Of a stretch of 64,000 nt of DNA, positions 1-25,767 are shown in pieces. This DNA is from Cyanophora paradoxa CCMP329 (lineage: Eukaryota > Plantae > Glaucophyta). A program made the position numbers and the translations under genes. Position 1 is the stretch's first letter; each line of letters opens with the position of its first letter. The notes under the pieces were generated by a model. That model searched no databases, was not told the DNA's origin, and saw nothing but the letters and a program-made list of their open reading frames with translations. The DNA is taken from assembly GCA_004431415.1 (NCBI GenBank), contig QPMI01000040.1, positions 434,001 through 498,000 of the forward strand. The letters are read 5' to 3'.

Positions 1-150
1 CCTCAGTTCATAAAGTAGATATTTGCAGTAGGTTGTCTTACCAGAATTGCTGCGCCCACATAATAAAAACCGAGTGCTTAATTTAACTGTTCTTGCAGGC
101 TCAAACTCCGGGATGTCATTCAAATCAATATCCATTCCTGTGTTATCCAT
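1..150 (-). CDS. A32/FtsK-like virion DNA-packaging ATPase, N-terminus (runs off the window)
   Basis: Manual translation from ATG at 150: MDNTGMDIDLNDIPEFEPARTVKLSTRFLLCGRSNSGKTTYCKYLLYELR. Hydrophobic strand followed by Walker A GxxxxGKT, directly downstream of the MCP. Confidence 0.85.
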   Translation of the reverse strand, partial: MDNTGMDIDLNDIPEFEPARTVKLSTRFLLCGRSNSGKTTYCKYLLYELR

Positions 151-259
151 TACAGTAATAAGATAAAAAACAAAATAAATTACTCAGCGCATGCAAGGCA
201 TGCTTGTCATGCCGACCCTACTAATTTTGAGCTTTCTACTATAACGAAAGAAAAGAACT

Positions 260-1486
260 TTAGAAGTTCGAGACTTTCAGGGTAGAGATGTTGTAGCCAT
301 TGAGGACCATAACATTGTGTCGTAGGGCATAGATATCAACCTGAACAGGAGCAGCATCAGTGCATCCCGAAACAGTGAGATCCATGTAACTGGAACTGCT
401 GTTGAAGAAATCCTGGTAACCCATAACACTGTTCCGAAGCGAATCTTTTCCAGATTTGGAAAGAACGATTCCGTAAATATTTCCATTCTCGAATCCATAA
501 GTAGTATTGCCAACAGTAACACCCTTGTAATGAGAAGGAATGTGATTGATAGCCGAGAGGAAACCGGAAATGGGTTTGTTAGAGATATCAAGGGAGCGAT
601 TGTTGTGGAAGATCTGGAACTGATCGATCTTAACATCCGAAACATGACCACAGAAATCCGAGTGAGTGTAGGTGTTAAGTTTGTTCACCTCTCGAACTGT
701 CATGAGAATCGAATGAACCAGACCAGAAACATTAGCGAGTGTCACCTCAACCGATTCACCAGCATCAGCGGTTTTAAGCGCTCGTGTCTTCTTGTGGATG
801 ACCTCTGTGATCGGAATGCGAATGCCACCTTGTTCATTTGCCATTTTCAAAAGTGTCTCAGCCTCAGCCGAAGCGATGTTTACAAATTGACAGATCAGGG
901 AGCAATCCGCAAATGTAACAGATCCACCAGCAGGAACTTTGACTATCCCAGCATCACGGAAATCAACCTCAATTGTTGGCATATCCGCCAGTGTGCATAG
1001 TGGGAAGTAAGCATCATCCCAGAAAGCAGCGGGGATTTTAACAATGTATTCCATAGCCTCATCAGTGCTTTCACGATCAAGTTCTTTGAAGTAACCAAGA
1101 GAAGCATACATGCTGCTCATGGTAGCATGATCATTATCAATCAGAGCGTTAACAGTAATCCAGTCACCAGGGATGATATACTTGAAACCACCATGAACAA
1201 AGCGAACCTCATTAATAAAGGAAGAACCACCATTAGGGAGGGTGCAGGCTACACCACCACCAGTGGCAATCTTGAAATAGAGCGAAACACCAGCAAGGAG
1301 TTGCTTACGAGGCAGATCAAAGTAAGCGGTATTCTTAAAGCCAAAAGTATTGCCTCGGGGGCGAACTTGCTCGAGGAATGGTTTGTACTTGGGGTTGGTT
1401 CCGATTTGGAGACCAGGGGATAGATAAATTTGATCGGAACCGGGAGTTACGAGGAGTTCCTTAAGGGTAGTTCCAGTGAGTGCCAT
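260..1486 (-). CDS. Double jelly-roll major capsid protein (408 aa)
   Basis: N-terminal 'FG..TAYFDLPRKQLLAGVSLYF' and 'FINEVRFVHGG...IPGDWI' match DJR-MCP patterns; 'YFPL...PTIEVDF'; beta-rich; size and context (between ATPase and penton). Confidence 0.85.
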   Translation of the reverse strand: MALTGTTLKELLVTPGSDQIYLSPGLQIGTNPKYKPFLEQVRPRGNTFGFKNTAYFDLPRKQLLAGVSLYFKIATGGGVACTLPNGGSSFINEVRFVHGGFKYIIPGDWITVNALIDNDHATMSSMYASLGYFKELDRESTDEAMEYIVKIPAAFWDDAYFPLCTLADMPTIEVDFRDAGIVKVPAGGSVTFADCSLICQFVNIASAEAETLLKMANEQGGIRIPITEVIHKKTRALKTADAGESVEVTLANVSGLVHSILMTVREVNKLNTYTHSDFCGHVSDVKIDQFQIFHNNRSLDISNKPISGFLSAINHIPSHYKGVTVGNTTYGFENGNIYGIVLSKSGKDSLRNSVMGYQDFFNSSSSYMDLTVSGCTDAAPVQVDIYALRHNVMVLNGYNISTLKVSNF

Positions 1487-1538
1487 CTCTTATGTTTAAA
1501 ATACCAAAAGAAATTTTTAAAATGCTTTATTAAACAGA

Positions 1539-2438
1539 ATGACGCGTCATTACCTTAATATTGATTCCAGGGACCGAGATGATGGAACCCCAACGAACTT
1601 CACTTACAAAATTCCCCATGCAATCCAAAATGTGAGAGCCTGCAGAGTGACTAACTTTGAGATGTTCAATAACATTTACAATCTTAGCGAGAATGGAAGT
1701 TTGATAACAGGAACCTATGATGCTGGAGATGTAATTAAGACCAAGAGTAACACTATTTCGAAAGGGACATATACTTCGGATAGTTTGGTGAATCTTCTAA
1801 ATGCCAAACTAGCTTCACAAGTGTACGGAGCAGCGGGAACTACATATACTCGCCATTTCTACGTTACATATGATCCTGTTACCATGTTTCTACGGTTCAT
1901 GTGCGATGCAACATTTACCCTCACCTTTGGAAGTCGGATCTTAGCGAACTTCCTTGGTTTCCCAGATCGCAGACCTGACAGTTCTGAAAATGGATACGCT
2001 TCTGCCCTGCTCGATTCACCTGTAACAGTTGGAGCTTATACTTATAATTACTACATTGACAGTGTTATACCGCTTGATCTTCTGTTCAATTCTTACATCC
2101 TTCTTCATGTTGACCCACTCAAAGGCAACTATGTAAGCAAGAACACCAGCGATGATAAAGCCCTTGCAAAAATCGAGATTGACCAAACGGTAGGCAGTCT
2201 GCTAAAATACGATTCATCGAATAATTCCATGATCCTGCATGAGCAAAACGGTTTGGTGGAAGTTGAAACGCTAAAAGTTCGTCTCACATACTGGAATGGT
2301 GCCGAAACGGATATTACCACTGACTGGTCGATGACTCTCGAACTCATTACGGAAGATGATAAAGATCTGACCAAGAAAGCATTGAAGAATGTCATTAAAG
2401 AGTTGGAGGGACTCTACTTGCCGTTCTCACGGTCATAG
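1539..2438 (+). CDS. Minor capsid protein (penton, single jelly-roll)
   Basis: N-terminal 'YLNIDSRDR...PTNFTYKIP..IQNV' and C-terminal 'LKVRLTYWNG.....DWSMTLEL' are typical of PLV/NCLDV pentons; divergent from MCP across 52 bp. Confidence 0.82.
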   Translation: MTRHYLNIDSRDRDDGTPTNFTYKIPHAIQNVRACRVTNFEMFNNIYNLSENGSLITGTYDAGDVIKTKSNTISKGTYTSDSLVNLLNAKLASQVYGAAGTTYTRHFYVTYDPVTMFLRFMCDATFTLTFGSRILANFLGFPDRRPDSSENGYASALLDSPVTVGAYTYNYYIDSVIPLDLLFNSYILLHVDPLKGNYVSKNTSDDKALAKIEIDQTVGSLLKYDSSNNSMILHEQNGLVEVETLKVRLTYWNGAETDITTDWSMTLELITEDDKDLTKKALKNVIKELEGLYLPFSRS

Positions 2439-2474
2439 GAAATACTGTAGAATAAATTTGTCTCGATATTACAA

Positions 2475-3221
2475 ATGGCTCGCAAGACTCAGCCCAAGAA
2501 TTTCTTAGCCAAACCAGTTGAGCAAGCAGAACCAGAACGGAAACAGTTTAAGAAATCGAAAGGAACCGCAGCATACGGAACTGGTGATCTCGATAAAAAT
2601 GTCCACCAGACCATGAATGCTCACACAATTGCGCTTACTTCAAACTCAAATGATGATAATGCCCTGGTTGACCAAGTCCCACTGAACCGCATGCCCGGAG
2701 CGAAACGAGGAATCAAGAAAGGGCAGTTCAAATCATCCACGAAGGACAAGGTTGCCTCATCATCGACACTGCTGAAACTGCTTGATGGTGGTGAGAGACT
2801 CTACTCAACCTATTCCGAGAAAGACCATCGCAACCGCTACTTTATTCGTTCAACCACTGGTGGACTGAAATCTGTGACATACCAGTATGCTAGGAGTCTT
2901 GTTGATGGCATTGCAGCAGAGACCAAAAACGAAAACAGGATCAAGGAACAGCCAATCACAAAGGAAAAGGTGGAGAAGAAACCAGAAGTAACCCATGAAG
3001 TCATCCCTGAACCTGTTCATGTTGCAAAAGAATCACCAGCCGAATTGATTGCAAAGACCATCGATTATCAAGACTCCAACAAAACGGATTTGCCGGTCCT
3101 CAATAAATCGATCCTCCGGGTTGCCACTTCGCAGGCTGATCCAGTCAACTCGATTCCAAATGCCGCCCCAATGGTCTCAGGGTTTGCCAAGCTCGGTATT
3201 AAACCTGGTTATCGCCGTTAA
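2475..3221 (+). CDS. Lys-rich hypothetical viral protein (possible virion core/DNA-binding protein)
   Basis: 248-aa ORF co-oriented with penton, viral-type composition, basic ends; no recognisable family. Confidence 0.6.
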   Translation: MARKTQPKNFLAKPVEQAEPERKQFKKSKGTAAYGTGDLDKNVHQTMNAHTIALTSNSNDDNALVDQVPLNRMPGAKRGIKKGQFKSSTKDKVASSSTLLKLLDGGERLYSTYSEKDHRNRYFIRSTTGGLKSVTYQYARSLVDGIAAETKNENRIKEQPITKEKVEKKPEVTHEVIPEPVHVAKESPAELIAKTIDYQDSNKTDLPVLNKSILRVATSQADPVNSIPNAAPMVSGFAKLGIKPGYRR

Positions 3222-3483
3222 GGATCAATCCCGAAATTAAAAAATCTTAAACATTGTTAGCGCTACGTAACCAATCTTATCCCGTAGGCTCAAACACTTT
3301 TTCATTTTTATGGAAGGCGTTGTAGAGCGAAGTGAAATATCCATAGGTAAATCACTTTAATCACCTGTTCTACCGGGTTCAGTGGTAGAAACTTGCAGCC
3401 GACAAGTGAACCTTCAAGGTATCGGTGGCTTTATCATTTTTCCAGCATCTTCTTTCGTACTGGATGCAATGCGATTGGGACCA

Positions 3484-3539
3484 AAAATTGATTGGGTTCT
3501 CACAAAGAATATATACACGACATAAAAACTACTTAAAGA
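3484..3539 (+). promoter_or_regulatory. Candidate early promoter: AAAATTGA (3484-3491) plus ACTTAAAGA (3531-3539)
   Basis: Exact mimivirus-type early promoter octamer upstream of ORF 3577; a similar bipartite arrangement lies upstream of pPolB. Confidence 0.5.
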
Positions 3540-3576
3540 TTTCTTAACATATATTAAGAGAGTAGAAAGGACAAGA

Positions 3577-3840
3577 ATGACGATCACAGAAGCCCAAAAG
3601 AAAGCAACTTACCGCTACCGTAAAACAGAAAAGGGTATGTTAGCGCTTGCTAGGATTAATGAGAAACGCAATGCAAAATGGAATGAACTCTATAACAATG
3701 ATGAAGAATTCAGACAAGCTCACATAATGACTTCATGCAAGGCTCAATATGTAAATAACACCATTCTCTATGTAAAGTATCTATTTGACATTCCTCGTAC
3801 TAACCGTGGACGTCCATCAAAGTATGTTAATGCTTGTTAA
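3577..3840 (+). CDS. Small basic viral protein with AT-hook-like RGRP motif
   Basis: 87 aa; 'TEAQKKATYRYRK' N-terminus and 'NRGRPSKY' C-terminus. Confidence 0.65.
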   Translation: MTITEAQKKATYRYRKTEKGMLALARINEKRNAKWNELYNNDEEFRQAHIMTSCKAQYVNNTILYVKYLFDIPRTNRGRPSKYVNAC

Positions 3841-3846
3841 TCGTTT

Positions 3847-3885
3847 TTCTCAGCGCGATTGCTCTGAGAACCCGCGGAAACCGCG
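3847..3885 (+). terminator. Twin hairpins just after the stop of ORF 3577 (candidate termination/polyadenylation signal)
   Basis: TTCTCAG(3847-53)...CTGAGAA(3864-70) and CGCGG-AAA-CCGCG (3873-85). Confidence 0.4.
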
Positions 3886-4008
3886 CTGGAAGCAAAACTA
3901 TAAATCTTTCTGTTATTTTTAGAGTTCGATGATCGAGCCAACCCTTTGTTATTTTTATAAATGCCCTCGACTGAATTTATTTTGTTGGAGACTTTTGGTT
4001 TTGCCGGT

Positions 4009-4041
4009 AAAATTTGACGCAAGTATAAAATGACTTAAGGA
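4009..4041 (+). promoter_or_regulatory. Candidate early promoter of pPolB: AAAATTTGA (4009-4017) plus ACTTAAGGA (4033-4041)
   Basis: Same two-part layout as at 3484-3539, about 30-65 nt upstream of ATG 4073. Confidence 0.4.
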
Positions 4042-4072
4042 AATAAAATATAGAGTATATATAAAAGTGAAA

Positions 4073-7000
4073 ATGCCTCGCGCAGTAAGTATTCAGAATG
4101 CGAGAAAGAGACAAGGAATGCTAGCAAAGCTTGGTTACCTTCTTGGTGCCGGAATCATAAATGAAGAGCAATTTAACGCATTGGGTTACTTTGCCTTCAT
4201 TAAGAGACTTCGATCTGCTGGTCTGAAGGACATAAGCGATACAATTGATGGTATTATTGCCAGGGGTGAGGGCAGACTGAATGAGCAGGATGAAATCGAG
4301 AGATTTGGTAACATTGAGGTTATTGAAGGTGGAAATAAGAAGACCAAAGCAGAGCGGATCGCTGAAAAACGAGACAAGAGAGCTGAACGGAAGCAGCAGA
4401 AGAAGCAGAAGAAAGCAGGGAGAACCGCTAAGAATGTTGAGAAGCAGAAGGTTAGAGAAAGAATAGCAAAGGAGGCAAAACAGCAGAGAGAGGATGAGAA
4501 GAAGCAACGAGAGGAGGCAGAGGTGATGCAGGCTATGAATAGTCTTGTAAGTGAGGTCACTTGGAGGAACCAGACCAAAGATAACATCGCTTCTGCCATG
4601 AGTTTATTGATAGGGTTGTTCGTTGGGATCCCTTTTACAATCGTTTTCGAGATGCTCTTCGTAACAGACGAGGTATTAAGTATAACCTCTACAGCATGGC
4701 GAGATATGTGAAAGTGGCAACTGGAGAAATAAGAACCATGCAATGGACCACCCCATTCTACCTTCTTGTCAATGATCAAGAGATTGTTGATACTGTTGAT
4801 GAATCAATTGATGCATTGCAGGAGGTTCTCACTTCACCTGATAGTTGGAAGCTAGAAAACATCTTAACAGTTCGCTTGCAGATTCTTACTTATCAGCCAC
4901 TCGCAGGTAGCTCCTATATTGACCTCCCACCAGGAATAAAAAAGCGTAAAGCTGTGATTAATCCACAGAACAAAGATAATAAATGTTTCGCATGGGCGGT
5001 AACTATTGGACTACATCAACATGAGCTATCTCATAAACACCGATATGATGTAAAGCGATACAAGAAGTATGAGAATGAGTTCAATTGGAATAAGTTTGAG
5101 TTCCCATTCAAGAATGATCCTCGTCAGTACGAACGAGCATCAAAAATGATTGGTCGACCAATCAATGTGTATATGGTCGATCGATCACATATCGTTCCAG
5201 TCCATATCTGTAAGGACCCATCCCAACAACATCTTACAATTGACATTCTTCTGTGGACTGTCAACGAAAAAACCCACTATGGTTACATTTCTAGCATGTC
5301 AAGGTTAATATCGAATTCACACCATGGAACTCGCCATTTCTGTAAAGCTTGTTTGAGAGGGTTCACAAGTGAAACAGTATTGGAGACACACATTAAACAT
5401 AACAAGTGTTACGATCGACCAAATGCAACAGTTGACACAATGCCACCGATTGGCTCTAAGACGAAGTGGGACCCAAAGAAACACATTGATAAGACTGTTT
5501 GGCATCCAATGTTCGTTGTTTCTGACTTTGAATGTATTTTGAAGAAGGTGGATGAGACACGAGGTGAAAACACTGCAGTCTACCAGAAGCACATTCCAAG
5601 TGGATACAAAATCATGGTTATCCACAACGAAGAGATTATAAAACAGGTATTGTATCGGAAGGAGAACCCAGAAAATGATGATGAGGTTACACAGCACTTT
5701 ATGGAGACACTGAAAACGATTGAATCCGATTTACTTGAGAAGCTTAGACATGTTGCACCAATGGTTATGGAACAATGGCACAAAGAGGATTACAGAGATT
5801 CTGTTGCTTGCTACATCTGCGGAGATGAGTTTGGAGCTACTATAACTGATGACAATGGTAACACATGTCAAGTTAAAAAGGTTAGAGACCACGATCACAT
5901 TACAGGAGATTACCTTGGAGCAGCTTGCAATACTTGCAATCTGAAACGAAAGATCAATCCAAAGATCCCAGTTGTGTTCCACAATCTAAAAGGTTATGAT
6001 GGACACTATATTCTGAAGGCTTTGAATTTCAATGAACCTGGTAAGGAAATTCGTTGCATTGCCCAGAATTTTGAGAAGTTCATAGCATTCGATATGGGAC
6101 CATACAAGTTCATGGACTCTTTGAATTTCATGGCTTCGAGCCTTGATGGTCTGGTAAAGAATCTCAGTAAGAATAATTTCAAATTCACCAATGAGTGGTG
6201 TGATTCTGTAAATTACTCACAGGAACAGCGAGAGCTACTGATGCAAAAGGGACACTTCCCTTACGACTACCTGGATAGCTTCGAGAAACTCAGTGAGACC
6301 CAATTACCTCCCAAAGAAGCTTTCTACTCGAAACTCAATGATACTGAATTAAGTGACTCCGACTACAAGCATTGCCAGAGGGTATGGGACGCTTTCAACT
6401 GCAAAACTCTCGGAGATTATCACGATATCTATCTTTCTACTGATGTTGCTCTGCTTGCTGACGTTTTCAATACATTCCGCAATGTTTGCTACAGTAATTA
6501 TAAGATCGATCCTATCCATTTCATTTCAGCTCCTCACCTGTCATGGTTCGCGATGTTGAAATATACAGGTGTGGAGTTGGAGCAATTGAGTGACCCTGAA
6601 ATGTATAGATTCTTTGAACTTGGAATTCGTGGAGGTGTTTGCATGGTTCCCAATCGTTATGCAGAGGCTAATAACCCCTACATGAAGTCTTATGATCCAT
6701 CAAAGTCAACAAAGTATATCACCACTTGGGATGCCAACAATCTGTATGGGAAAGCGATGAGTTTCAAGCTACCCAGAGGTGGATTTGAGTGGATTGATGA
6801 CATCGAGAATTTCGATTATATGGGCTTTGATGTGGAAGGTGATAGAGGTGCAACTTTGGAGGTTGACTTGGAATATCCAGAACACCTACATGATCTTCAC
6901 AGTGATTTACCTCTTGCTCCCGAATCTCTAATAATCACCAAGTCAATGATTTCACCAACACAGCTTGAAATGATTGGTGATGAAAAACTACCCCAGACTC

Positions 7001-8033
7001 GTAAGTTGGTTCCCAATCTGATGGACAAGACCAATTACATCCTACACATCAAAAACTTGCAGTACTACATCTCAAAAGGATTGAAGGTAACAAAGGTTCA
7101 TCGTGGGATTATGTATGATCAATCCGAGTGGTTGAGACCATACATTGATTTCAATACCGTACTGCGGACGCAAGCTCGTAACGATTTTGAGAAAGACTTC
7201 TACAAACTCATGAATAACTCAGTTTTCGGAAAGACCATGGAGAACGTTCGCAAGCGAAGTAACATAAAGCTTTGCAACGATCCGAGGGTGCAGCTCAAAC
7301 ACAACAGCAATCCGTTGTTGAAGACAGTGAAGATTATCAATGAGAATCTTACTGCTTTAGAGTTCTATAAGGGTTCTATAATGTTGGATAAACCCATTTA
7401 TGTTGGTCAGGCTATCTTGGATCTGTCCAAACTAATCATGTATCGTTTCCATTACGATTACATCATGGTGAAGTATGGACCTGGATCAGCCAAGCTCCTC
7501 ATGACTGATACAGATTCCCTGTATTATCTGATTGAGACTGATGATATCTACAAAGACATGATTGAGGATTCTCATTGGTTTGATCAGTCTGATTACAACA
7601 AATCCCACATCTGTTACAACCCTAAAAATAAAAAGGTTCCAGGTTTGTTCAAGGATGATTGTGGTGATTATCTCGTCACAAGGTTTGCAGGCTACAAACC
7701 AAAAGCATACTCCTACGAGAAGGAGTTGAATGTTAAGGCTCTTGGTCTTGAAGTTGCTGGTGATACAAAGACTGTGAAGAAGTTGAAGGGAGTTCAGAGG
7801 AATGTTGTTCAGAATAAATTGGAGTTCCAACAGTTCTACAACACTGTCATGAACCCCAGGTTCAGCAAGAATCTGTAACAGTTAGAGGCTTCCGATCAAA
7901 GAACCACGAGGTAACAACGCAGGAAATGAAGAAAAGGGCATTTAATGCGCTCGACACTAAGCGGTATCTTTGTGAGGATCTCTATACGACTCTTGCGATT
8001 GGACACTATAAAACAAAAACGACACTATTATAA
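4073..8033 (+). CDS. Protein-primed family B DNA polymerase polyprotein (putative terminal protein + vOTU-like region + C2H2 finger + exonuclease with EndoVII insertion + polymerase); two -1 frameshifts in the given sequence
   Basis: Motifs GSSYIDLP, NKCFAW...HYGYI, ExoI SDFEC, HDHITG..GAACNTCNL, ExoII HNLKGYD, WDANNLYG, KLMNNSVFGK, MTDTDS. The conserved C-terminal tail (FRSKNHEV...ALDTKRYL...TLAIGHY) continues in the -1 frame to TAA 8031-8033. The main frame is open upstream of 4696 back to ~4585 and overlaps ORF 4067-4711. Confidence 0.93.
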
Positions 8034-8035
8034 GG

Positions 8036-9093
8036 ATGGATCAGGTTTTGAGTTACACCAAGTATCGACAGAAATTGATTAAAGAAGGTGTCACATTTGA
8101 TGAGGAAGAACTAAGAAAGCGTTTTAAAAATCAAGAGATTGAGCAGATCTTTAAAAAGCCCAGAAAGCAAAAGTCTTTCTTGCGGATCGTTGCTCCACCC
8201 AATTCCTTTCAGGTTGATGTGATTTATTTCAAAAGCTACAAGACAGCAACACATGGAGTGGATAGGATGATGGGATTTGTCGATATATTGAGTCGGAAAG
8301 CATTTGTATACCCTTTCAAGCCAAAGGATTCGAAAATCGATATTTTCAACAGGTTCAAAGTTGAGGCAGGCAAGGTTAGTGCTATCTCAGGAGACAATGA
8401 GTTCTCTGCTGAGATTTATAGGAAATGGTGTGAGGAAAACAATGTAACTCTTTACACTGATGTAGCTAAGAATGACCACATCACAGTAGGTGATAAACTT
8501 GGTATTATTGATAGGTTTACCAGAACTTTCAAGCAATATTTGAGAAAAGCAATAGTTTCGAGTGGGAACCCCAAATGGACAGATTATTACAAGGAAGTTC
8601 TTTCAACTTATAACAACAGCCCACACACATCACTTAAGAATGATCCTCCCAATGCAGTTTACGGGAATAACGAGAAAGAATCGTTTATATATTTGCGTGA
8701 TGCATTGCATAATAAGCGTGTTAAAGAAGGTAGCCCAACAGTAAAGGAGGGAGATTATGTTCGAGCTGTAACTGAAAAGAAGACTTTCGATAAAGAAGGA
8801 GCAAGATACAGCAAACAGGTGTATAAAGTAGCAGGCAAGGTAGGTAATCGATTCAGTTTGTTGGAAGAGAATGAGGGAGAGAGTCCAAAAGAAGTGAAAC
8901 GAAACTTTAAACTGAACGAGTTGCAAAAAGTAGATAAGGCAGCAATTGTTAAGATTCCCACACAGAAGCGTGTGGAGCGAGTGAAAAAACAACAAAGGTG
9001 AATAGATTAGTAGCAAAAGAGGGTATCAAGCCCAATAGGAGCAAAGTAGTTAGGAAGAGGTATAATTTAAGAAGCGGTTTGACTAGGCGTTAG
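8036..9093 (+). CDS. Retroviral-type (rve) integrase; C-terminal tail in the -1 frame
   Basis: FQVDVIYF / ISGDNEF / GIIDRFTRTFK core, YNNSPHTSL..PP, SH3-like 'GDYVR...KKTFDKE...YS..VYKV'. The -1 frame from ~8995 reads KVNRLVAKEG...RKRYNLRSGLTRR* (TAG 9091-9093). Confidence 0.92.
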
Positions 9094-9452
9094 GTTGTAA
9101 GGTATGAGCCATCTTTCGATTCAACAATTTTCGTGATAGGTCTAAACACTTTGAAAATTTCTTTATTATGGATTCCTTTAACATACCAACCCTTATTAAT
9201 GGGATCCCATCTGAGACCATAAGATTTCGCTAATTGGATATCTTTGAAAGCAACTTGACAATACATTTTAACATTAATGTATTTGATTTCGTCTTCGGTT
9301 AGTTTTCGGAATTCTTTGAAGATCTCACTGTTTTCATCTTCAACAAACCATAGCTTCTTTTCAAAATCCCATTTTGCGCCTTTTGATTTCACGGATTCAC
9401 GATCATCATATCGAGAGAAAATGTAAAAGCGTTGTTGTGGCTTGGTTTCCAT
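9090..9452 (-). CDS. Tandem DUF5710-like domain protein
   Basis: Two copies of the Y...F/Y.D...K..G.(K/R)WD...K.W(F/Y)V motif: 'YDDRESVKSKGAKWDFEKKLWFV' and 'FKDIQLAKSYGLRWDPINKGWYV'. Confidence 0.8.
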   Translation of the reverse strand: METKPQQRFYIFSRYDDRESVKSKGAKWDFEKKLWFVEDENSEIFKEFRKLTEDEIKYINVKMYCQVAFKDIQLAKSYGLRWDPINKGWYVKGIHNKEIFKVFRPITKIVESKDGSYLTT

Positions 9453-9512
9453 TTTTATTCAGATTATCAGATTATTTTTATATGAAACAATCAATGAGGA
9501 ATAACCGAGATT

Positions 9513-9845
9513 ATGATATAACATCGATTGTTGTTACTGAGGCTTACTGAGATTAAACGTTTTGTTTTGTGTGGTTACTGTGAATGGTTTGTTTTTGTCG
9601 AAACGTTTGTGGAATATCGAAAAGTTTAAAGTTTATTCGATTTTATTACCATATATAATCTCGTGGGGCAGTATGCCAATGATATAACATCGAATTTTGT
9701 AAATGATGCTTACTGAGATTTACTGAGATTGGTGATTGGGTTACTGAGAATGGTTTGTTTTGTTGAAATGTTTGTTGAAAACATGAAAAAATGAGAGTTT
9801 ATTCGATTTTATTACCATATATAATTTCGTGGGGCAGTATGCCCA
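9513..9845. repeat. Two imperfect ~166-bp tandem repeats in the viral terminal region (probable TIR)
   Basis: Units 9513-9678 and 9679-9845 both start ATGATATAACATCGA and end GTTTATTCGATTTTATTACCATATATAAT(C/T)TCGTGGGGCAGTATGCC; internal TTACTG(A/T)G iterations. Confidence 0.88.
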
Positions 9846-9862
9846 ATTTACATTTTTTTACT

Positions 9863-12800
9863 ATATTGGATTCACCACCCCGGTCGTGAATCCAAGCAGG
9901 ATCTTGTAAGCCCAGCCGCTCATGCTAGCGCTGCAGCAGATCTCGATCTGACTAGCTTCGCAGCGAAATTGATCTTGCTGTAAGCTCGAGCTCCAGGGTC
10001 GGGCGAACCGTCATTTCAATCTCCACCTCAGCCATCACTACAGGTTCATGGTGTTCGTGTCTGCGAGCTAGTTATATGTGCTGAATTTCAGCCAGACGTC
10101 AATCCGGCCATGTTTGCGTGCGGAAATCTGCTGGTGGATGCAACGCGCAACCGGCGCCCTTACATCATTGATCCGAGTAGTGCGTTTAGCGTTAAAAACT
10201 TGAAGATATGTAGAGGAATCTGAAGCTGATGCCATTTTCAGGCGGCTCTATTGTCGGCAGCCCTTCAAACATACAAATGACCGGCATCGCCTTCCCCTTG
10301 AGGAGAGCAGCTCTTGGCTCGGATCCGACCCTGTGCACCTTGTGCGTGCACCTCTCGAGCTTAAGCTTGCTTTAATTTGTGAGCTTAAGCTTGCCGGCCG
10401 ACGCCCGCATCAGGATCGCTGTTGGTGGAGACGTCGCCGGTACCGGAGCCACCGCGATCCAAATGCGCGGTTCGCTTAAATCGCATGTTTGAGTTCTAAT
10501 TCACAATATCAAAATGTAATTAATAAACATCTCTGCACAGGGACGTACCCTGGATGGAACCTGCCGGTGGTGGCCTCCGTGAAAGCTATGTCGACGGGCT
10601 CGCGCTCCGCCACCGTTACCATAAACTTTGCTTGGAACGCGGGCGTGGAACTGACCAGCGCATCGGCGAGCTGCATTCCCTTGGCTGGAGGGCCTGCTGA
10701 TTGGACTGCGTCCGCGGCAGTGCCCGCAGGGACACGCTCAGGGCCACTTACGCTAGCAGCGGGTGGGCTGCAGCCGAATGTGTCGTACGCGTGTTGGGCG
10801 AATGCCTCGAACAGCGTGGGGACCTCGGCCAGCGTCTCTTCCGCGCAGTTTCGGACGACTGCCGAAGCGCCTGCCGCCGTCGGCATCGCCACGCAGAACG
10901 TCCAGGCAACCGCGGCAGAGCTTGTCGTGACGTTTGGAAGTACCGGAGGGTCGACCATTACTTCCGCTGCCGCGAGCTGCACCCTTCTTGACTCTACCGG
11001 CGTAGTCTGGAGCGCATGGATTGCAGTGACGTCGCCGGTTGGCGCCAACTTTACGGCAACCGGACTGGCGTCGAACTCAACCTATAGCTGCTCGTCCAAC
11101 GCTACAAACCTGATTGGGACGTCCCCGAATTCGAATGTCACATTCACAACGCTCGTGCTCACGGAGACGCCGAGCCCGAGCCCGTCGCCCAGCCCGTCGC
11201 CGACGGAGACGCCGAGCCCGAGCCCGTCGCCCAGCCCGTCGCCGACGGAGACGCCGAGCCCGAGCCCATCGCCAAGCCCGTCGCCGACGGAGACGCCGAG
11301 CCCGAGCCCGTCGCCCAGCCCGTCGCCGACGGAGACGCCGAGCCCGAGCCCATCGCCAAGCCCGTCGCCGACGGAGACGCCGAGCCCGAGCCCGTCGCCC
11401 AGCCCGTCGCCGACGGAGACGCCGAGCCCGAGCCCGTCGCCCAGCCCGTCGCCGACGGAGACGCCGAGCCCGAGCCCGTCGCCCAGCCCGTCGCCGACGG
11501 AGACGCCGAGCCCGAGCCCATCGCCCAGCCCGTCGCCGACGGAGACGCCGAGCCCGAGCCCGTCGCCCAGCCCGTCGCCGACGGAGACGCCGAGCCCGAG
11601 CCCGTCGCCCAGCCCGTCGCCGACGGAGACGCCAAGCCCGAGCCCGTCGCCCAGCCCGTCGCCGACGGAGACGCCGAGCCCGAGCCCGTCGCCCAGCCCG
11701 TCGCCGACGGAGACGCCGAGCCCGAGCCCGTCGCCCAGCCCGTCGCCGACGGAGACGCCGAGCCCGAGCCCGTCGCCCAGCCCGTCGCCGACGGAGACGC
11801 CGAGCCCGAGCCCGTCGCCCAGCCCGTCGCCGACGGAGACGCCGAGCCCGAGCCCGTCGCCCAGCCCGTCGCCGACGGAGACGCCGAGCCCGAGCCCGTC
11901 GCCCAGCCCGTCGCCGACGGAGACGCCGAGCCCGAGCCCGTCGCCCAGCCCGTCGCCGACGGAGACGCCGAGCCCGAGCCCGTCGCCCAGCCCGTCGCCG
12001 ACGGAGACGCCGAGCCCGAGCCCGTCGCCCAGCCCGTCGCCGACGTCGACGGAGACGCCGAGCCCGAGCCCGTCGCCCAGCCCGTCGCCGACGGAGACGC
12101 CGAGCCCGAGCCCGTCGCCCAGCCCGTCGCCGACGGAGACGCCGAGCCCGAGCCCGTCGCCCAGCCCGTCGCCGACGGAGACGCCGAGCCCGAGCCCGTC
12201 GCCCAGCCCGTCGCCGACGGAGACGCCGAGCCCGAGCCCGTCGCCCAGCCCGTCGCCGATGGAGACGCCGAGCCCGAGCCCATCGCCCAGCCCGTCGCCG
12301 ACGGAGACGCCGAGCCCGAGCCCGTCGCCCAGCCCGTCGCCGACGTCGACGGAGACGCCGAGCCCGAGCCCGTCGCCCAGCCCGTCGCCGACGGAGACGC
12401 CGAGCCCGAGCCCGTCGCCCAGCCCGTCGCCGACGGAGACGCCGAGCCCGAGCCCGTCGCCCAGCCCGTCGCCGACGGAGACGCCGAGCCCGAGCCCATC
12501 ACCCAGCCCGTCGCCGACGGAGACGCCGAGCCCGAGCCCGTCGCCGAGCCCGTCGCCGACGGAGACGCCGAGCCTGAGCCCGTCGCCCAGCCCGTCGCCG
12601 ACGGAGACGCCGAGCCCGAGCCCGTCGCCCAGCCCGTCGCCGACGGAGATGCCGAGCCCGAGCCCGTCGCACAGCTCGACCCCGCTTCCGAAATCGCAGT
12701 CGTCACCTAGCCCGAGCCCATCGCCAAGCCCGTCTCTTTCGCCGCCTACGCCCATACCGACTGCTCCTCCGCCGGCTATAATCGTCGCGCAAGAAGCTGT

Positions 12801-15800
12801 CGTCTACAATCCAGAAGCCATTGCAGGAGCTTCAGAGCTCGTGACCCGCATTTCCGCCCTGTCGGTCTTCATCGCCCCCCCGAAGGTCATCAGCGATACT
12901 GTGGCGTCCGACAGCTCTTCCAGCGGCGCCCCACGCAGCCTAAAAAGTGTCGCCGTGCTCGAGTATTACTTCAGCTCCGCCACTGACCCGCAGAGCCGCA
13001 CGGTGCGCGTGAATTGAGTTTTTTCGAACTTCCAGAATCGCAGAGAACTTACATTCTTATAATTACGCGCACCAGACGTTCGATTCGCTGCTGGAGAGCC
13101 TCTCGGGGAGCTCGCCGGAACTTTTCGGCGTGTATGAGGTGACGAGGCCCGGCGCGCCGGGCTACGTCAACGTCAACTCGGCATACCCCTTTGCCGGGGC
13201 GGCCCTGCTGACGAACGTGGTGGGCACGCTCACGTACGACCCCGACTGGGGCTCGTTCGCCGCCGTCGCCGCTGCCATCTTTGACGCAACGGGATTTCGC
13301 CCCGCCGCACTCTCCGTGGCCACGCCGCGGCGTGCCCTCCGCCAGTACTCGCGGTCCGCCGTTCTCGTCTCCTTCGGCAGCACTGTCGGCGCCCTACAAG
13401 CCGCCAAGAAGGCGCGTCGCTTTCCCCTCACTGATTCGTCTTCGCTAAAGCGGCTAGTAGACGCTGGCGCTCGTCGCGAGCTGCATGCTCGAGCCCGTGT
13501 ACCAGTTCGAGCTGGACAGCGAGCTGGCGCAGAACCCGTGCCTTAACTTTACCACCGATGCTACCCTCCCCATGCCTGGTGCGGCTTGGATCGGCAGCAT
13601 TACTATGTGCCGTGATCGATATCGTGACCGCGCTTCGCACGGCCCCGCAGCGGTCAAGGCGCTGGGGCGGCAGGTCGACCTGGCCACCAACGACACGGCC
13701 TTGGCGGGAGCGATTTTTTCCCTGCTGAGCGTGCCGGGCGATGGTGATGCGACCTCGCTCGGGCTCGTGGCGTCGCGGCGGCCCGCCGCCGGCGTCGTGC
13801 TGCGGGGCGAGAGCGCCGCGGAGACGCTGCGCGCGCCAGGCGCGGGCGATCGCGAGGCTGTTTGTGCCCTCTCCGACGGGCGCGAGTGGCTCTTCTTCGT
13901 CTTTGGCTCGGACTCGGACGGCGCGAGCGTCTCTGCAACGAGCGCCGCAACGCTGCGAAACTTCACGCTGCCCTCTTCGGCGCTGCCGCGGCCCGCCGCC
14001 TGCGCCGCCTTCGACGGGCCCTTCTCGCTCGTGGTCGGCACGCGGGAGCCGCGGCTGCATCGCGTGCGGCTGACGGGCGACGGCCTCGCGAGCGAGCCGA
14101 TCGCGTGGACGCTGCCCAGCGCGAAGCCGGTCGTGCTCGGGGAGCGCGCCCGCCAGCCGCCGGCCGCCGCCTCGCGCGCCGTCTTCCTCCAGTCCGACGA
14201 TGCCGCGAGCACCGGCGGCGGCGCCTGCAACGCCGCCGACGCGTCCGTCTTCCTCCTCGTCGTCGACCGCTCCGGGGCGGTGCGCAGCGTCGCGGGCGCC
14301 CTCCCCGGCCTCTGCCCGCAGGCCCTCGCAGTCTCTCCCGACGAGTCCGCCGCGCTCGTCCTCGTCGCCGGCGGGCGCCTCTTCCGTGCACCGCTGCACC
14401 CGAACGCGACGGGCGGCCTCCGCGAGCTGCCGGGTCCCAACCGAATCCCAGGCGGCGGTGCGCTCGCCTCGGTCATCTTCCTCGCCAGCCGTGCGTACGC
14501 TGTCGGCGCCGTCGTCGGGAGCGAGCTGGCGGCGGGGCCGCGCCTGTGCCTCCTCTCCGTGCTGGAGGGCGAGGTCGCCGCCTCGACCTGCTTCGACCTC
14601 GAGCTCCCAAGCGCGGGCGTTGCCGGCGCCGCCGCTCAGGTCGCACTGCAGGCCGCGCGCCCGGCCCGTGCGTTCTACGTGACCCTTGGTAGGCTCCTGG
14701 TGCCCCTGCGCGCCGAGGCCGGCAGCGTCCGGCTGCTGGGGGGCGCCGGCACGAGCGCGCAGCTCGGCTCGAGCCTTGTGCTGGAGTACATGGTGGGGGG
14801 CTTCAACCTGGAGACGCGGGTCAAGGTCGTGAGCGCGGCCAACCTGCGCACCGTCTACAGCTTCGCGGCGAGCAACCCGGAGGGGAGCTGGCGGGCGGCG
14901 GGCCGCCGGGCGACGGCCATCCCCCTCCGCGCCCCCTTCTTCGCCGTCGGGGGCAGCTACGCGGTCGTGGTCTGCCTTGAGCTTGACGAGGCGTGCAGCC
15001 CGCCGGGGCTGCACTTCAAAGTCCGCGACGCCGCGGGTGCGGTCTTCGATTCCCATCAGCCCTTGACGCTGCAAAGAACGCTGCTGCCCTTGACACGCGC
15101 GCGCGGCCGCCGGGCAGGCTCGGACACGGGTCCCGCGCGGTCGGTGCTTCTCCGCCTCTCCGCGCTGCGCTCGTACGTCGGGGGCCGGCTCCAGGCGGTA
15201 CTCGACGGCGTCTCCCTCGAGTCGCCCGTGCGGGGACAGTCCGCCGTGCGCCGCCCCGCGTTTGTGAAATTGCTGCTCTGCTTGGCGAACAAAGGATCGT
15301 GCAGCGCGTCGTGAGCGAGGGGGATGCGGCGGTGAACGCGAGCTTCTATTGGAACGACCCCGCGCGCTGGGCCGCCGCCAGTTCGTATCCCCCGCCTCCC
15401 CTTCCCACTTCCCTCTCCGCCCACAGCCAAAGCAGGCGGCCCCGGGCGGGCGGTGCACTTCCGCTTCGAGAAGGGGCCGGGCCGCTGGCGCCTCGCGTCC
15501 ATTCTGGCCGCCGATGCCACGGGGGTGCGCGAAATGCTTGATTTTCGCGCGCGTGCGAAAGAGTCCGAGCCTCGAATTTCGCAGGAGCTGCTCCAGTGGG
15601 TCGCGGGCTACAACGCCGACGCCCCCTCGGCGGCGCTGGGCAGCGCCCTTGAGTGCGGGGCGCTCAACGTCACGCTCGTAGCTGCCGGCTCGGCGGCCCC
15701 GCGGGGATGGCTTGCCCTCTCCAACTTCAGGATGTTCGCCTTTGAGGCCGCCGGGGGTACGTATACGGTTAGATTGGCGGTTTTCCGCTCAAGCGTGCTT

Positions 15801-18800
15801 CGAGATCGAGATCGCCTGCTCCCCTCACGCACGCCCTGCGTGCAGAGGTCGACAAGCTGCAGTGCGCGGGCGGCGAGTCGACCACGTGCTTCCTGCGGCA
15901 GAACGCGAACGGGGCGGGGCGCCTCGTCGCCTCGTGCGGGCCGGCCGCCGCGGTACCCGCCGTCCTGCGCGCCGACCTCGGCGCCGTCGGCTTTGCCGCC
16001 TTGCTTGAGCGCGCCTCCACCATCGGCGGCCGCCCCGCCGCCCTCGCGGCGTCGCGCCGACGGGCGCTCGCCCTCTCCGACCTTGTCGTGACGAGCTTCG
16101 GCAAGGGCCCTGCCGGCATGACGGCGCGCCCGGCCCGCGCCTCGCAATCGGCGCCGCCCGCGGCCGTCGCCGCCGGCTGACGCGTGCACGCGCGCTGCGC
16201 AGCCGGCGCTGGAGGTCTTCGACGCCGTCGACGCAGGAGCCGAGCCCGCCGCGCTGATACAGGGCGTGGCGGTGGACGGCGCCGACGAGGCCCTCAACCC
16301 GAAGCCAGGCAGCCCGCCCGGTGCGTGCTCGGCCTTGCCGCCGTCGAGACCATCGGACCGACCGGGGCGCGCGCGGCACGCAGCCGGGGCGTGGACGCCC
16401 GTGGTCTCGGCCGCCGCGCTGCAGCCGTCCGACTTCGCGTGCACCTTCGGGCCCGAACTCTTCGCGCTGCTGCCATCCGCCGTGCGCTCCTTCGGCCTCG
16501 CAAACGGCGCGTGGGGCGAGGGCCCCGCGGCGCCGCGCGCGACGGCGGGCGCTGCCTTTGCGTGCCTCGAGCCCACCCTCTACGGTCCGCCTCCTCTCCC
16601 CTCGTTTTCGCGGAGCGCTGAGGCGGGGGCAGCGCTCGGGGCGGACGGGGCCCTCATGGCCTACTCTTCCGTCTCCGCCGAGTGGGTACAGCTGAACGCG
16701 AGCGGGGAGCAGCCCGCCCCGCGCAGCGCCGCCGGCCTCGTCGCCACCGGCGAGGCCCGCCTCCTGCTCATGTGCGACCGGCCGGCCGCCCGATCTTATG
16801 CCGAAGCCAAGCCGAGCTCACGGCGGGCGGGCATGCACAGGGGCGGGCTGGACGGGGCGTGGCGGGCGCTGGAGGACGCGTGGGAGCTCGACCTCGCGCT
16901 GCTCGAGTGGCGCCGCGCGGGCGCGCCGCCCCCGCAGCCCGCCCGCGTCGGAACCTCCCTCGCCCCCGCGGGCACCTCCCGCTCGGTCTTCTTCGCCTTC
17001 GGAGGCGTCGCTGTGGGCGCTGCCTCGACGTATTTCGACGACCTCTACCGGTGCGCCGCGCCCCCTTCTGTTCCCGCGAAGCCTTCCCTCTCTTGGAGGG
17101 CCGGACGAGCGGGGGGACAGGTACGACCGCGACGCGTCGACCGGGGCGTACTCGGCGAGCCGCGTGATCTCGAGCGGGGCGGGCCCCTCGCCCCGCGCCC
17201 ACGCGGTGGTCCAGGCTTCGGCCTCGGGCGGGCTGCTGTACGTGGCGGGCGGCCTCGGCGCCGACGGCCCCGCGAGCCCCTCCGAGCTCTTCGTCTTCGA
17301 CGCCGCGCACTCGACCTGGACGATGCTGCTCCCCTTGGGGAGGCCCCCCGCGTACCCCGCGCAGCTTTCGCGCGCCCCCGCCTCGGCAGTCCTCGACGGG
17401 GCACTGTACGTCGTCTCGGAGGGGGCGGTCGTCGCCTGGAGCCTCTCCCGTATCGCCTCGTTCCCTTCCAGTGCGTCGCCAGCTGTTATCCTTACACAAG
17501 CCCCCTCGCTATTTGTGCCCAAAGTTGCTACTTGTGCAGGTACGGGCACGCCGACGGCGCCTTTCATCTCCGCCCCCCCAAGGGCCGCGGAGATCACCAG
17601 CCAGATCCTGTATCCGACATCCGGCGCGGTGCTGGTCGCTGGGGGTACCGTCTCCGTTTCGTGGGCCTCCGACGCGGCCATGTACCCCCGTGTCCGCGTC
17701 GAGCTCTACTCAATCGACCGCTCGTGCTCGGCTACCCTCTGCGCGGGGTCCAACGCCGGCACGTGCACGGGGCCGCTGCCCGCCTGCGGCGCCGCGGGGC
17801 TCTACCAGGCGTCGGTGTCGCTCAGCGGGGGGCCCGGGGCGGCCTCAGATCCGCCCCTCCTCCTCGTCGGCGATTTCTTCCGCCTCGTGTCCGGTTTGCC
17901 TCTCGATGTTCCTACGTATACGCCCCGGACGGCATGCCCATGCATGACGCCCCGGCCCGCAGCGAACGTGTCGGAGGTGCTGGCGACCGTGCAGCCCGGT
18001 GTGACGGTCACGGCGCCCCTCGTCGCGCAGGAGCGCGGGGCGTACGCGATAGCTGGCGAGACGGTCGTCCTCGAGTGGGCGACGCGCGGCCTCGCGCTGC
18101 CCCACAACGTCACCGTCGACCTCGTCGAGTCGGCCACGGGCGCTCCGCTGAGGCGCCTCGCGCGCCGCCTCTCGCTGACCTCCTCCGGCTCCCTATCGTG
18201 GACCGCCGACCTGGACGGGTCGCCGCCCCCGCTTCGCTTCGCCGTCACCGTCGCGACGCCCTCGGGCTCCCACAGCGCCTCGTCGGAGGAGTTCGCGCTG
18301 CGCCCGTACGGCGTCGAGGTCGAGGGGCCGCCGGAGCGGAACTGGGTCCCGGGGGGCAGCTATCCCCTCGACGTCTTCTCGTCCGCCGGCGTCAGCACGC
18401 AGCTGGCGTCGCTCTCGCTGCTGCAGTTCCCACAGCTCACGCACGTCACCACCGTCGCCCCCGTCCTGCCCCTCGCCGCCGCGGGCAAGGGCAAGGCCCG
18501 CGCCGGCGCCCGGAGCCGGGGCCTCCTCGGCGCCGCCGCGGCCGACCGCCTACTCTTCGCCAACTACAGCTGGCCCATCCCGCCGGGCACGCCCGACGGG
18601 CTTTACATCCTGCAGGCAGACGTCCACTCGGACGCCGTATCGGGGCAGTCGCCCCCCTTCTGCATCGGGCCCAACCCCTGCGCCCGTGCGCCCCCGCGGC
18701 CGGCCGCGCCCGCCCGCCCTTCGAATTCTCGCACCGCTTTGATTCGCGTTGTATGACGTCCTATGATTTGCGCACCCAGCTGGCTTCGTCTTCCGCGCGC

Positions 18801-21800
18801 CGTACGCGGCGCCGGGGGCGCTCGAGCTCCCACGCCTCACGATCGGGCGGCCGTACTCGATCCGCTGGGCGAGCGCCGGCGTGCCGAGGGGCGGGCTCGT
18901 GCAGATCTCCATCGCCAACCTCGCAGACGGCAAGCCGATGCCGGTGTGCACGCGCTTCCCTCTAGATCTCTGCAGTCTTCTCGTCGTTGGTGCCACCTCT
19001 GCCTCCCTCTTCCTGAGTGGCATCCTTGCAGATCGCGGTGGTGGAGAACTCGTGGTCGTTCACGTTCGCGCCGAGCCCCGAGCTGACCCCCGGCGTGTAC
19101 TACTTCGAACTCTCCGCGCACGTCGACGGCGCCCCCGTCCGCTCCGCCTCCACTCAGGTGCCCGGGCCCGGCCCCCGCCCGCCCGCGTTGATCATGAGCT
19201 CCGAATTCGGATTTCGCGCCCCCCCATAGCTACCGGTCCCTTGATCAAGCGCGCCCGCAGTTTCTCCTCGAGCTGCCCGCGGCGTACCTCCTCTGGCGCC
19301 TGCCCGACGGCGCCACCGACTACAGTGCGGGCGACCGCGTGCCTCTCCGGTACGGACCCGCCCGCGAACGAGGCCCCGCCGCCTCGGCCCGGCCCGCGAA
19401 TTTCCGAATTTCCGCCCCGCCAGGTGGTACCTAGGCGGCGTCGGCGCGCTGGCGGTCGCCCTTCGGATCGTCCGCGTTGAGGATGGATACGCCAAGGTGC
19501 GCATTCAGTTTCCTTTTAAGCATCTCCTGCGAGCCCTTAAGCGCCTCTTGACTGAGCGTGCCGCCAGATGATCTCGCTCTCTGCGCCCAACACGGGCTCG
19601 TATGCGTGGACCGTCGACGGCGACACGCCGCCCGGCCGGTACCGCATCGAGGCGCCTCCTCTTCCCTCCTCTCCCCGCGCTCTCTTCTCACCCATATGCA
19701 TCCCACCGCCAGATCGGCGTGGATGGCTTCCGAGTCTCGGACACCAGCGCGGCCTTTGCCGTAGCCTCGCGGCCCGCCGTCCGCGTCGGGAGCCCCCCCA
19801 CGGACCTCGTGCCGGGCCGCTCCTACCGGTGCGCTTTCCCCTCGCCCCCGCCCCCTTCGCTCACGTGCGCGCCGCGGGCCCGGGCAGGATCCAGTGGAGC
19901 TCTGCCGCGGTGCCCCGTGAGGCGGCCGCGTCGGTCGCCGTCGTGCCCATCGCCTCGGGCGCCCTCACACCGGCCCCCGCCATCGTGCGCTCCCCCCTGG
20001 CCTGGGCCCGCACCCCCCTCCACCTCCTCCGCCGCCGCCGTCGAGCGCATCGAGCGCAGAAGTTGGAGACGACCAACGCGGAGCGGGAGCTCGAGTGGGC
20101 GCTGCCCGCGCAACTCGTGCCGGGGCAGTACCGCATCGAAGTCTCCCTCGCCTTCAGCGGCGCCGTCGCGGCGGCGGGCAGCAGCGCGCCGTTCCGCGTC
20201 GTGACCGGTGCGCGCGTTTCGGGCTCGCGACGCTGAATGCAAATAATAATAATCGAATCTGCGATGAGCCGTCAGCCCCCGCCACGCCGGACCCGTGCAT
20301 CGGCCGCCCCCCGACGGTCTCTGCGAGCATCCGCGAGGTCGTGTCGAGCACTGGTGCGCGCTGCCTCGTCTCGCAGGCGGGCGGCCGCAGGAACGTCGAA
20401 CTCACGCTCCGGATTGCAGGCCCCGCCCGCGAGATCACGTTCGAGTCGGGCCGCAACGAGGCGGAGCTCGACGCGACGGGCACGGCCACTTGCGACGGCG
20501 CCCCCGCCGCCCTCCGCTGGGCGGAGGTCGACCCCCTCGACCCGCGGCGCCCCGCCCTAGTCGAGGCGCCCACCGCCGCGAAGACGGCCGTTCGGAGGCT
20601 CCGCGTCGGCCTCTCCACGTCCGCGCCCCGTCCCGCCCCGCCCCGCGCGACTTTGCTGTCCGCGTCGACCGTGCGCTGACGGCGCGCGGTCGCGATCGCG
20701 ATCGCGAGTCCAGGTTCCGGCTCACGGCGACGGACAGGCTCGGGCAGAGCGCCAGCGCCGAAGTGTCCATCCGCCTCCTCCACCGCCACAGTCCGCCCGT
20801 TTGATTGTTCGATGATCTCAAAGCTTACAAGCGCGGAACACATATATACAAATTAAAGCTGCTTAACTTGGGCTTAAGCTTGCAGATACAGCTCTATATA
20901 TCGCACTCTGACGCGGCCCTTGCGCGCGCACAGCGGTGATGGCGGTGCTCTGCCTTGGGGCGCCCCACGGGCTCTCCCTCAACGAGTCGGACGCCCGGGC
21001 CCTCTTCGAGGCGGGCCTCGGCCCCTTCCTGGGGCGCCCCGCCCCCGCAGCCTCCTTCGCGGCCGTCCGCGCCGTCCGCTGCCCCGGAGCGGAGGCATCG
21101 GCGGCCATCTCCGCGCAGCTCCCGGCGATTCCGGGCGCGCACGCGGCGCTCGCCCCGGCCCGGCCACCCGATGTCGATCCTTCGTCGGCTGACGCGCGCG
21201 TGCAGGCCTCACGGGGACGGAGGTGGCGCAGGCCCTCTCCCGGATGCAGCCGGCGGACTGGGAGCGCCTCGCCGTGCCCGCGCCGGCCCCCGTCACGCGC
21301 CTCCTCATCGACACCGAGGCCGCGTACGGTGCGCGCAAACCGCCGCGAAAGCCGCCGCGAAAGCCGCCGCGAAAACCGCCGCGAAAACCGCCGCGAAAAC
21401 CGCCGCGAAAACCGCCGCGAAAACCGCCGCGAAAGCTTACACCGCCGCGAAAATCGCCGACTCGCGATCGCCGGGCGCAGCGAACGAGCCGCCCGGCGCG
21501 CCCGTCCTCTCGTTCGTCCCCGCCTCCCGCCTCAACGTCCTCCTGGTCAACAAGCGGACCAAGCGAGCCAGCGTGGAGGTGCTGGTGGCGGCGCGGGACC
21601 GGCCGCCCGGCGTCGTCGCCGCGTACGAGTGGACGCTTGGGGGCGAGCTGCAGGCCTCAGCGGCCCCCTCGCTGAGCCTCTCGCTGGGCGTGGGCGAGTA
21701 CACGGTGCGGGCTCTGGCCGTCGACGATGAGAACGCGTACGCGGAGAGTGACGGCCTCGTCATCCGAGTGCTGGACGAGTACGGCTGCAATGCCGCGAAG

Positions 21801-24800: not shown

Positions 24801-25767
24801 CAAGGCGATCTCCGCCCTCGTGACGGGTGCGCATGCGGATCCGCTGCGGCGGTACCCGGTGGCCGCCCGCGCCCCCCGCCCACTCGTTTCGCGCCGTACC
24901 CCCGCAGGCCTCGTGGTGGACCCCGCCACCGTCGCCGACGGTGGCCCCGGCGCCTTCTCGTACGCCGCCGTCCAGGTAACCCCCCCCCCCCCCCCCCCCC
25001 CCCTTCCCCTCCCGCGCCCCGCGGACGCACGCGACCGCCGGGCGCCGGCCGGCAGATCTCGATCCTGCTCGCGATGAACGCCCTCGAGATCGCCTTCGTC
25101 CTCGTCGTCCTTCCCTTCCGGCGCGCGCGCCTCCTCGAGCTCTCCCCGCGGCCATGGCCAGGCGCCCGCGGCTGCACATGCGCTGAGCCCGGCCCCCCGC
25201 AGGGAGTGGATCGAGAACGGGGTGCAGGTCCTCGCCGTCGCGTGCCAGGCGCGCCCCGCCCCCGCCCCCAGTTCTTTGCAGCGCCGGCCGCCCAGCTGCA
25301 GAGTGACGCGCCACGCGCAGAGCGCCGTGCTGGCGCTGCTGCTGGCGGCGACGGCGGACCCGTGGAGCCCGCGCGTCCCCGCCATGTCCCTCGCCTCCTC
25401 CCTCCTCTCCGCCGCCTCGGTCGGCCTCGTGCTGGCGAACCAAGTCCGCGCCGAGCGCGACCTCTTCCGCCGCGCCCTCCGCTGGCTCGCCCGCCCCCTG
25501 CCCAAGCGGGGCACGATCGCGAGCCCGCGCGCGCGGCCGGGGCCGTCGACGTCGACGTCGGAGGACGGCTCGAAACTTAAACCGTGGGGTACCAGTGCTG
25601 TGGCGGCCATGGCCAGCGGCGGCGGTGGCCATGGCACGCAAAGCCCGCGCGACTCCCCGCGCGAGGTCCTCCCCGGCTTCCACCGGCGCGCCCCAGCCGC
25701 GTCCTCGCAGTGGGACGCCGGCGGCGCCCATGGCCAGGTGCGCCGCCCGTGGCCATGGCCTGCCTGA
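9863..25767 (+). CDS. Very large multi-exon cell-surface/membrane protein: FN3 domains, ([14 protein letters not shown])n stalk, Kelch-like repeats, Ig-like/Ser-Thr-rich modules, PKD-like, degenerate vWA, C-terminal multi-pass (TRP-like) region; 5' part cut off by the virus; 3' end approximate
   Basis: Phase-consistent exon chain 9863-9905, 9997-10043, 10096-10179, 10242-10341, 10414-10469, 10541-.... FN3 '[21 protein letters not shown]'; Kelch '[13 protein letters not shown]...LEDAWELDL...W'; PKD 'AYEWT...[12 protein letters not shown]'; vWA '[11 protein letters not shown]'; hydrophobic segments 22570-25450. Confidence 0.75.
11161..12670 (+). repeat. Coding 42-bp tandem repeat (~35 copies) encoding [14 protein letters not shown]
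   Basis: Directly visible unit acggagacgccgagcccgagcccgtcgcccagcccgtcgccg; resembles hydroxyproline-rich glycoprotein stalks. Confidence 0.95.
21337..21432 (+). repeat. Intronic 12-bp minisatellite (AA[A/G]CCGCCGCGA)x8
   Basis: Lies inside intron GT 21329...CAG 21480. Confidence 0.85.

Follow-up and report, generated by a model that had tools for sequence, protein, structure and literature searches.

We believe it probable that a Polinton-like virus has cut into the coding sequence of a giant, intron-rich gene in the glaucophyte alga Cyanophora paradoxa, in an exon and in the middle of a kelch-type module, and in doing so has knocked the gene out. Within the window (the whole stretch of 64,000 nucleotides analysed here, to which all positions refer), viral and host DNA are joined, the host flank is coding, the cut falls inside a module, and neither a start codon nor a splice acceptor accompanies it.

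The interrupted exon and the host gene

The host gene is laid out as follows; P0001 and P0003 are paralogous C. paradoxa proteins taken up below.

9859..9905, + strand: remnant of the interrupted coding exon, with an ungapped match to P0001 from residue 270 and to P0003 modules
9906..9963, + strand: intron 1 as corrected here, 58 nt, from the paralog alignment and an acceptor test
9964..10540, + strand: exons 9964-10043, 10096-10179, 10242-10341 and 10414-10469, which encode the last part of the kelch-type module
10044-10095, 10180-10241, 10342-10413 and 10470-10540, + strand: introns 2 to 5
10541..13002, + strand: large exon with two FN3-like domains, followed by a 42-bp repeat that codes for a Ser/Pro/Thr stalk
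13076..26071, + strand: rest of the host gene, with kelch and Ig/PKD-like parts and membrane-spanning segments near the end

Insertion into a coding exon had been proposed in an earlier note on this DNA, and the proposal stands: homology to the paralogs reaches the join in the middle of a domain, coding similarity runs right up to the end of the element, and no acceptor or start lies between the two. When intron 1 is taken to end at 9963, residues 270-325 of P0001 match the remnant without a gap, and three complete P0003 modules match it as well, in each case from the Trp-Tyr motif onward. Each of the five paralog modules that were scored has a conserved motif 126-131 residues ahead of the cut point; to the right of the virus, no fewer than 126 residues from before the cut are missing. 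P0001 itself has about 270 residues upstream of the cut point, with a signal-like stretch at its start and one FN3 domain. Another protein, P0012, is of a length that would suit the missing 5' piece; it was rejected, as it extends past the cut point.

No AG acceptor occurs between 9838 and 9894, the last in-frame ATGs in the end of the element (9703 and 9706) run into stops, and the first usable in-frame ATG is found at 10110, in agreement with the earlier description of a junction that lacks both an ATG and an AG acceptor. The remnant might still be expressed, whether transcription begins at a promoter that faces out of the viral end or splicing bypasses the element, to give a shortened protein from the ATG at 10110. 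The viral end does have an AG, at 9836-37, within an open in-frame stretch, and our gene model keeps the 3' part open for about 4200 codons, but the product from 10110 would have no signal-like stretch, and the whole element would make an improbable intron, because introns in the model measure 49-152 nt and the mean reported for the species is 86 bp (PMC6704402). We think continued expression quite unlikely. No RNA run is among those listed as containing 9863-11150, and four runs presumed to be RNA contain almost none of its sequence words, an outcome that has no bearing on expression.

The frame of this exon can be followed downstream. Five introns had been proposed, the first at 9906-9996 and the others as listed above; all have GT..AG ends and together they leave the frame open into the FN3 exon, and it is the end of intron 1 at 9996 that is likely wrong. 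Introns 2-5 are backed by colinear alignment to the paralogs. For intron 1, eight acceptors were tried, two of which (9963 and 9996) keep the frame. A branch-like motif, CTGAC, precedes the acceptor at 9963 by 16 nt, and use of this acceptor brings back 11 codons in agreement with the paralogs; it gives an alignment score of 64, versus 34 for the acceptor at 9996, and its exon 1-2 score was reached by 4 of 5000 shuffles, versus 2094 of 5000 for the 9996 version. Intron 1 is thus likely to span 9906-9963 rather than 9906-9996. The remnant's 5' exons (9860-11160) have a GC content of 51-63%, as compared with 73% for the rest of the gene.

A crude gene model from 9862 to 26071 has 45 introns and 4268 residues with no internal stop, is colinear with the paralogs P0004 and P0005, and has four hydrophobic segments near its end. 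GC-AG ends are found in 9 of its 45 introns, which would be a large proportion should the model prove correct. The 42-bp repeat is present in 35.8 copies, at 11161-12675. The large exon had been called an FN3 exon from its letters; the FN3 assignment is sound through the paralogs, while Pfam gives no match in the window exon itself. The kelch assignment likewise comes through the paralogs.

All eight of the paralogs looked up, among them the best relatives of the FN3 exon, are C. paradoxa proteins, and three of them exceed 4000 residues; together with the capsid described below, they make C. paradoxa the likely host. The kelch-FN3 giant proteins P0001, P0003, P0004, P0005 and P0007 of this species (EukProt gene models, and unnamed predictions) have the module order of the host gene and are 34-45% identical to it over the FN3, middle and membrane-proximal parts; the host copy differs from them in its mid-module start and in its 36-copy Ser/Pro/Thr stalk. 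Signal-like starts can be seen by eye in P0001 and P0008. In a structure prediction for P0001 (9 sequences) the FN3 domains alone are confident; the kelch-type part is mostly below pLDDT 50, and a closed propeller is unsupported in that prediction. By blast, P0004 and P0005 have no propeller module of the type that was cut, and the N-terminal layout therefore varies in the family. Because of its FN3-like and kelch parts, its Ser/Pro/Thr stalk and the hydrophobic segments near its end, the host protein is likely to reside at the cell surface.

Elsewhere in the window, an intron-rich gene at 26700-31440 (- strand) may, to judge by eye, encode a 4-alpha-glucanotransferase with starch-binding domains. 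A lower-GC stretch with a T-run at its start, at 53170-53830, is possibly the tail of a retroelement remnant, and an open frame of more than 3000 residues at 54782-64000 (- strand) is made of 171-bp repeats, with weak stretches of Pfam match to YdcK beta-solenoid and SBBP repeats.

The viral element

The part of the element that lies in the window carries the following features.

1..9858, no strand: Polinton-like virus, right-hand part, recognised by low GC, multi-copy depth and gene content; its left end is outside the window
1..150, - strand: probable packaging ATPase, of which the window contains only the start, with a Walker-A-like motif seen by eye
260..1486, - strand: major capsid protein of NCLDV-like double jelly roll type, from Atlas and from near-identity to a C. 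paradoxa capsid
4696..7878, + strand: polymerase-like gene, with PolB-type motifs seen by eye and its C-terminal part in another frame
8036..9001, + strand: retroviral-type (rve) integrase, Atlas 0.98, recognition 3240
9090..9452, - strand: DUF5710 protein of the element, Pfam E 2e-15
9453..9858, no strand: non-coding terminal region of 30% GC with a 166-bp repeat and a T-run at its end, which is likely the right inverted repeat

Composition and gene content make this element a likely Polinton-like virus. Its GC content is 40%, versus 68-73% for host DNA, and its polymerase region stands at about 8-11 times the depth of the flank in the contigs of four runs, a rough ratio and not a copy number. 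It has the double jelly-roll major capsid protein of a Polinton-like or Maverick-type element and, by Atlas, the rve integrase as well.

At the window edge, 1..150 (- strand) encodes 50 residues with a Walker-A-like motif, and we presume these to belong to the ATPase; Pfam gives no family match for them. A gene of 299 residues at 1539-2438 (+ strand), also without a family match, could, from its position and look, be a minor capsid protein. For 4696..7878, the PolB-type motifs seen by eye suggest a candidate PolB. This gene has no Pfam PolB match and no PDB match, it has weak matches to endonuclease VII, and a comparison with viral loci returned four candidates, none of them confirmed as related. 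The integrase has neither a Pfam nor a PDB match, and PF00665 occurs in 48% of the members of its best Atlas cluster.

The capsid protein has 408 residues. Its Atlas score of 0.98, with a recognition of 1850, which is weak, is to clusters in which 10-18% of the members carry Capsid_N/Capsid_NCLDV. No relatives were confirmed among 4653 candidates, and a single-sequence structure prediction reached a pLDDT of 30. Compared with a capsid that PMC10120064 (Table S2) lists for C. paradoxa, it shows about ten differences in the first 300 or so residues, as counted by eye; the matching capsid is assigned in that table by HHpred with 97% probability.

The 166-bp repeat of the terminal region is present in two copies, at 9513-9843. 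The end pattern of the element has one match within the window and none in viral contigs, and the host part of the window shows no recurrence of element sequence. In summed contigs, depth and variation are several-fold higher over 1-4092, the capsid/ATPase side, than over 4093-9300, the polymerase/integrase side, which suggests that the virion module is common to more element types. The window also differs from the run contigs by single-base length differences at 4595 (4 of 4 runs), 7858 (3 of 4) and 8983 (4 of 4), positions that sit at the ends or starts of long frames around the polymerase and integrase genes. Run contigs over the element stem largely from other copies; either this copy is broken at these three places, or they are assembly errors in a repeat.

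The join and its exact position

The flank was found in 20 sequencing runs, all of them possible sources of this DNA, and the junction was examined in four of the 20; being possible sources of the same DNA, these four are not independent. In each of the four, one contig crosses the join without a single difference, from 9830 to beyond 11150. It carries 33 element bases and 1288 host bases at a depth of 42-126, and the flank is at single-copy depth. A join created by the assembly might be suspected in view of the element being multi-copy, and of several hundred places at which the window differs from the run contigs, but the bridging contig, identical in four of four runs, largely refutes such an artefact and makes it extremely unlikely.

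The same contigs bear on the status of the site. The earlier wording, "this allele", implied a second, intact allele; because the contig is unbroken at the join, no empty-site allele is present in the contigs of the four runs, from which rare variants may be dropped, and PMC6704402 reports that haploidy is the more likely state of the species. Fixation of the insertion is accordingly seen for 4 of the 20 runs only.

The bridging contig also helps to place the viral end. It starts at 9830 in all four runs, and at its far end it stops 30 bases into a tandem repeat, which points to a 30-base overlap rule for the contigs. By this rule we infer that 9830-9859 is common to other places and that 9860 is the first unique base. 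In the paralog modules, codons 9859-61 and 9862-64 match a Trp column (8 of 8) and a Tyr column (7 of 8), respectively, and the fit to the paralog columns is lost over 9853-58; three random viral bases would match both conserved columns equally well in 9% of cases. On the assumption of 15-21 other element ends with random flanks, the likeliest last viral bases are 9857-9858, with 9859 less likely. The true viral end therefore likely lies at 9857-9859, within the T-run, with 9858 as our best guess, and the first host base is likely at 9858-9860 rather than at 9863. A one-base change in the T-run of this end would mimic the contig pattern on which the placement is built. One further feature follows.

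9859..9864, + strand: predicted 6-bp target-site duplication, +/-1 base, and the first two host codons, from the contig start and the paralog columns

This duplication, at about 9859-9864, is a likely one, predicted from the right end alone, with its second copy beyond the window; duplications of 6 bp are reported as typical of rve integrases (PMC12220804). The earlier note had the virus ending at 9862 and the duplication at 9863-9868. Both are likely wrong, as the contig start at 9830 and the paralog columns put the end about three bases earlier. For 9862 to be exact, with a Maverick-like trinucleotide at the end, the T-run of this end would have to be unlike all others. Vertebrate Mavericks do end in such trinucleotides (PMC8097293), and three viral bases would fit the conserved columns by chance in 9% of cases, which would allow it, but the vertebrate motif is doubled and the trinucleotide here is single, and the contig would break at 9863 if the left end were identical as far as 9862, whereas it runs through from 9830 in all four runs. 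We regard an end at 9862 as unlikely; it concerns position only, and is compatible with an exonic insertion.

Insertion, gene loss and known elements

The general course of an exonic insertion can be outlined. The element's own rve integrase would likely have inserted it into the exon, and would have duplicated about six host bases at about 9859-9864; rve elements are reported to leave duplications of 5-6 bp (PMC8547959, PMC12220804). The promoter, signal peptide and first exons of the gene would then likely lie beyond the unseen left end, and this family member would likely have lost its function, a loss that is probably tolerated thanks to the several full-length paralogs elsewhere in the genome. 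The crude model reveals no decay of the 3' part, and the insertion is accordingly likely young; this absence is weak as evidence, because the fit of the 45-intron model aimed at an open frame. Both the element and the remnant are probably silenced, as has been reported for repeats and viral genes in C. paradoxa, which are methylated and mostly silent (PMC12344493).

The gene could also have been cut without a clean insertion, if recombination between viral copies deleted its 5' part or carried it elsewhere; the left flank would then be unrelated. There are many related copies, with variants mixed among them, the left end is outside the window, and in rve-rich clusters of cryptophytes the duplication is reported to be kept in only 58% of elements (PMC12220804). 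At the same time, the terminal region looks complete, its last 30 bases are common to other places, and the remnant is without decay, and we give this course of events a small chance. Insertion into the exon is the reading that we carry forward.

Such elements in C. paradoxa, and exonic insertions in protists, are already in print, and the locus is a further instance of both. It illustrates cleanly how a DNA virus that integrates can act as an insertional mutagen in a glaucophyte, and it likely provides a natural null allele for one of a family of predicted surface proteins of very large size. It also serves as a warning that gene models adjoining such elements are truncated, and it supplies a testable end motif for the element family. 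One might go further and propose that the knockout was selected and fixed in this lineage, with the kelch-FN3 protein as an attachment site for virus or predator, and that the element represents a glaucophyte virus group with plain A/T-run ends that differ from the Maverick ends described so far; we hold this to be very unlikely.

Bellas et al. (2023, PMC10120064) report 366 capsid matches for C. paradoxa, which, so far as the columns can be counted, belong to two clusters of their 'iterative HMM' block, and Starrett et al. (2021, PMC8502044) note contigs with PolB plus integrase in this species. One capsid of these endogenous Polinton-like elements is near-identical to that of the window element. 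The portions of the two papers drawn on here mention neither where the elements insert nor an end motif nor a gene that is disrupted, and a literature search brought up no account of this locus or these ends, though supplements other than the species-name rows of PMC10120064 may hold one.

Vertebrate Mavericks/Polintons (PMC8097293) share an rve integrase and a capsid with the window element and, going by the motifs seen by eye in the latter, perhaps also a PolB-like and an ATPase-like gene. Their reported end motifs are (AGT)2//(ACT)2, (AG)3//(CT)3 or (AC)3A//T(GT)3; such doubled or tripled 6-bp motifs are absent at the end of the window element, which, unlike vertebrate Maverick ends, is likely a T-run.

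The EMALE virophages of Cafeteria burkhardae (Hackl et al. 2021, PMC8547959) resemble the window element as low-GC rve-integrase elements in a high-GC protist genome. They are described as leaving short duplications, and 13 of their 22 classified insertion sites lie in exons. EMALE insertions are described as putatively heterozygous, whereas no empty allele was seen here in four runs. The capsid is not of the Mavirus-like virophage (EMALE) type, its look-alikes carrying NCLDV-type families, and the window element thus stands apart from EMALEs in its NCLDV-like capsid and its glaucophyte host.
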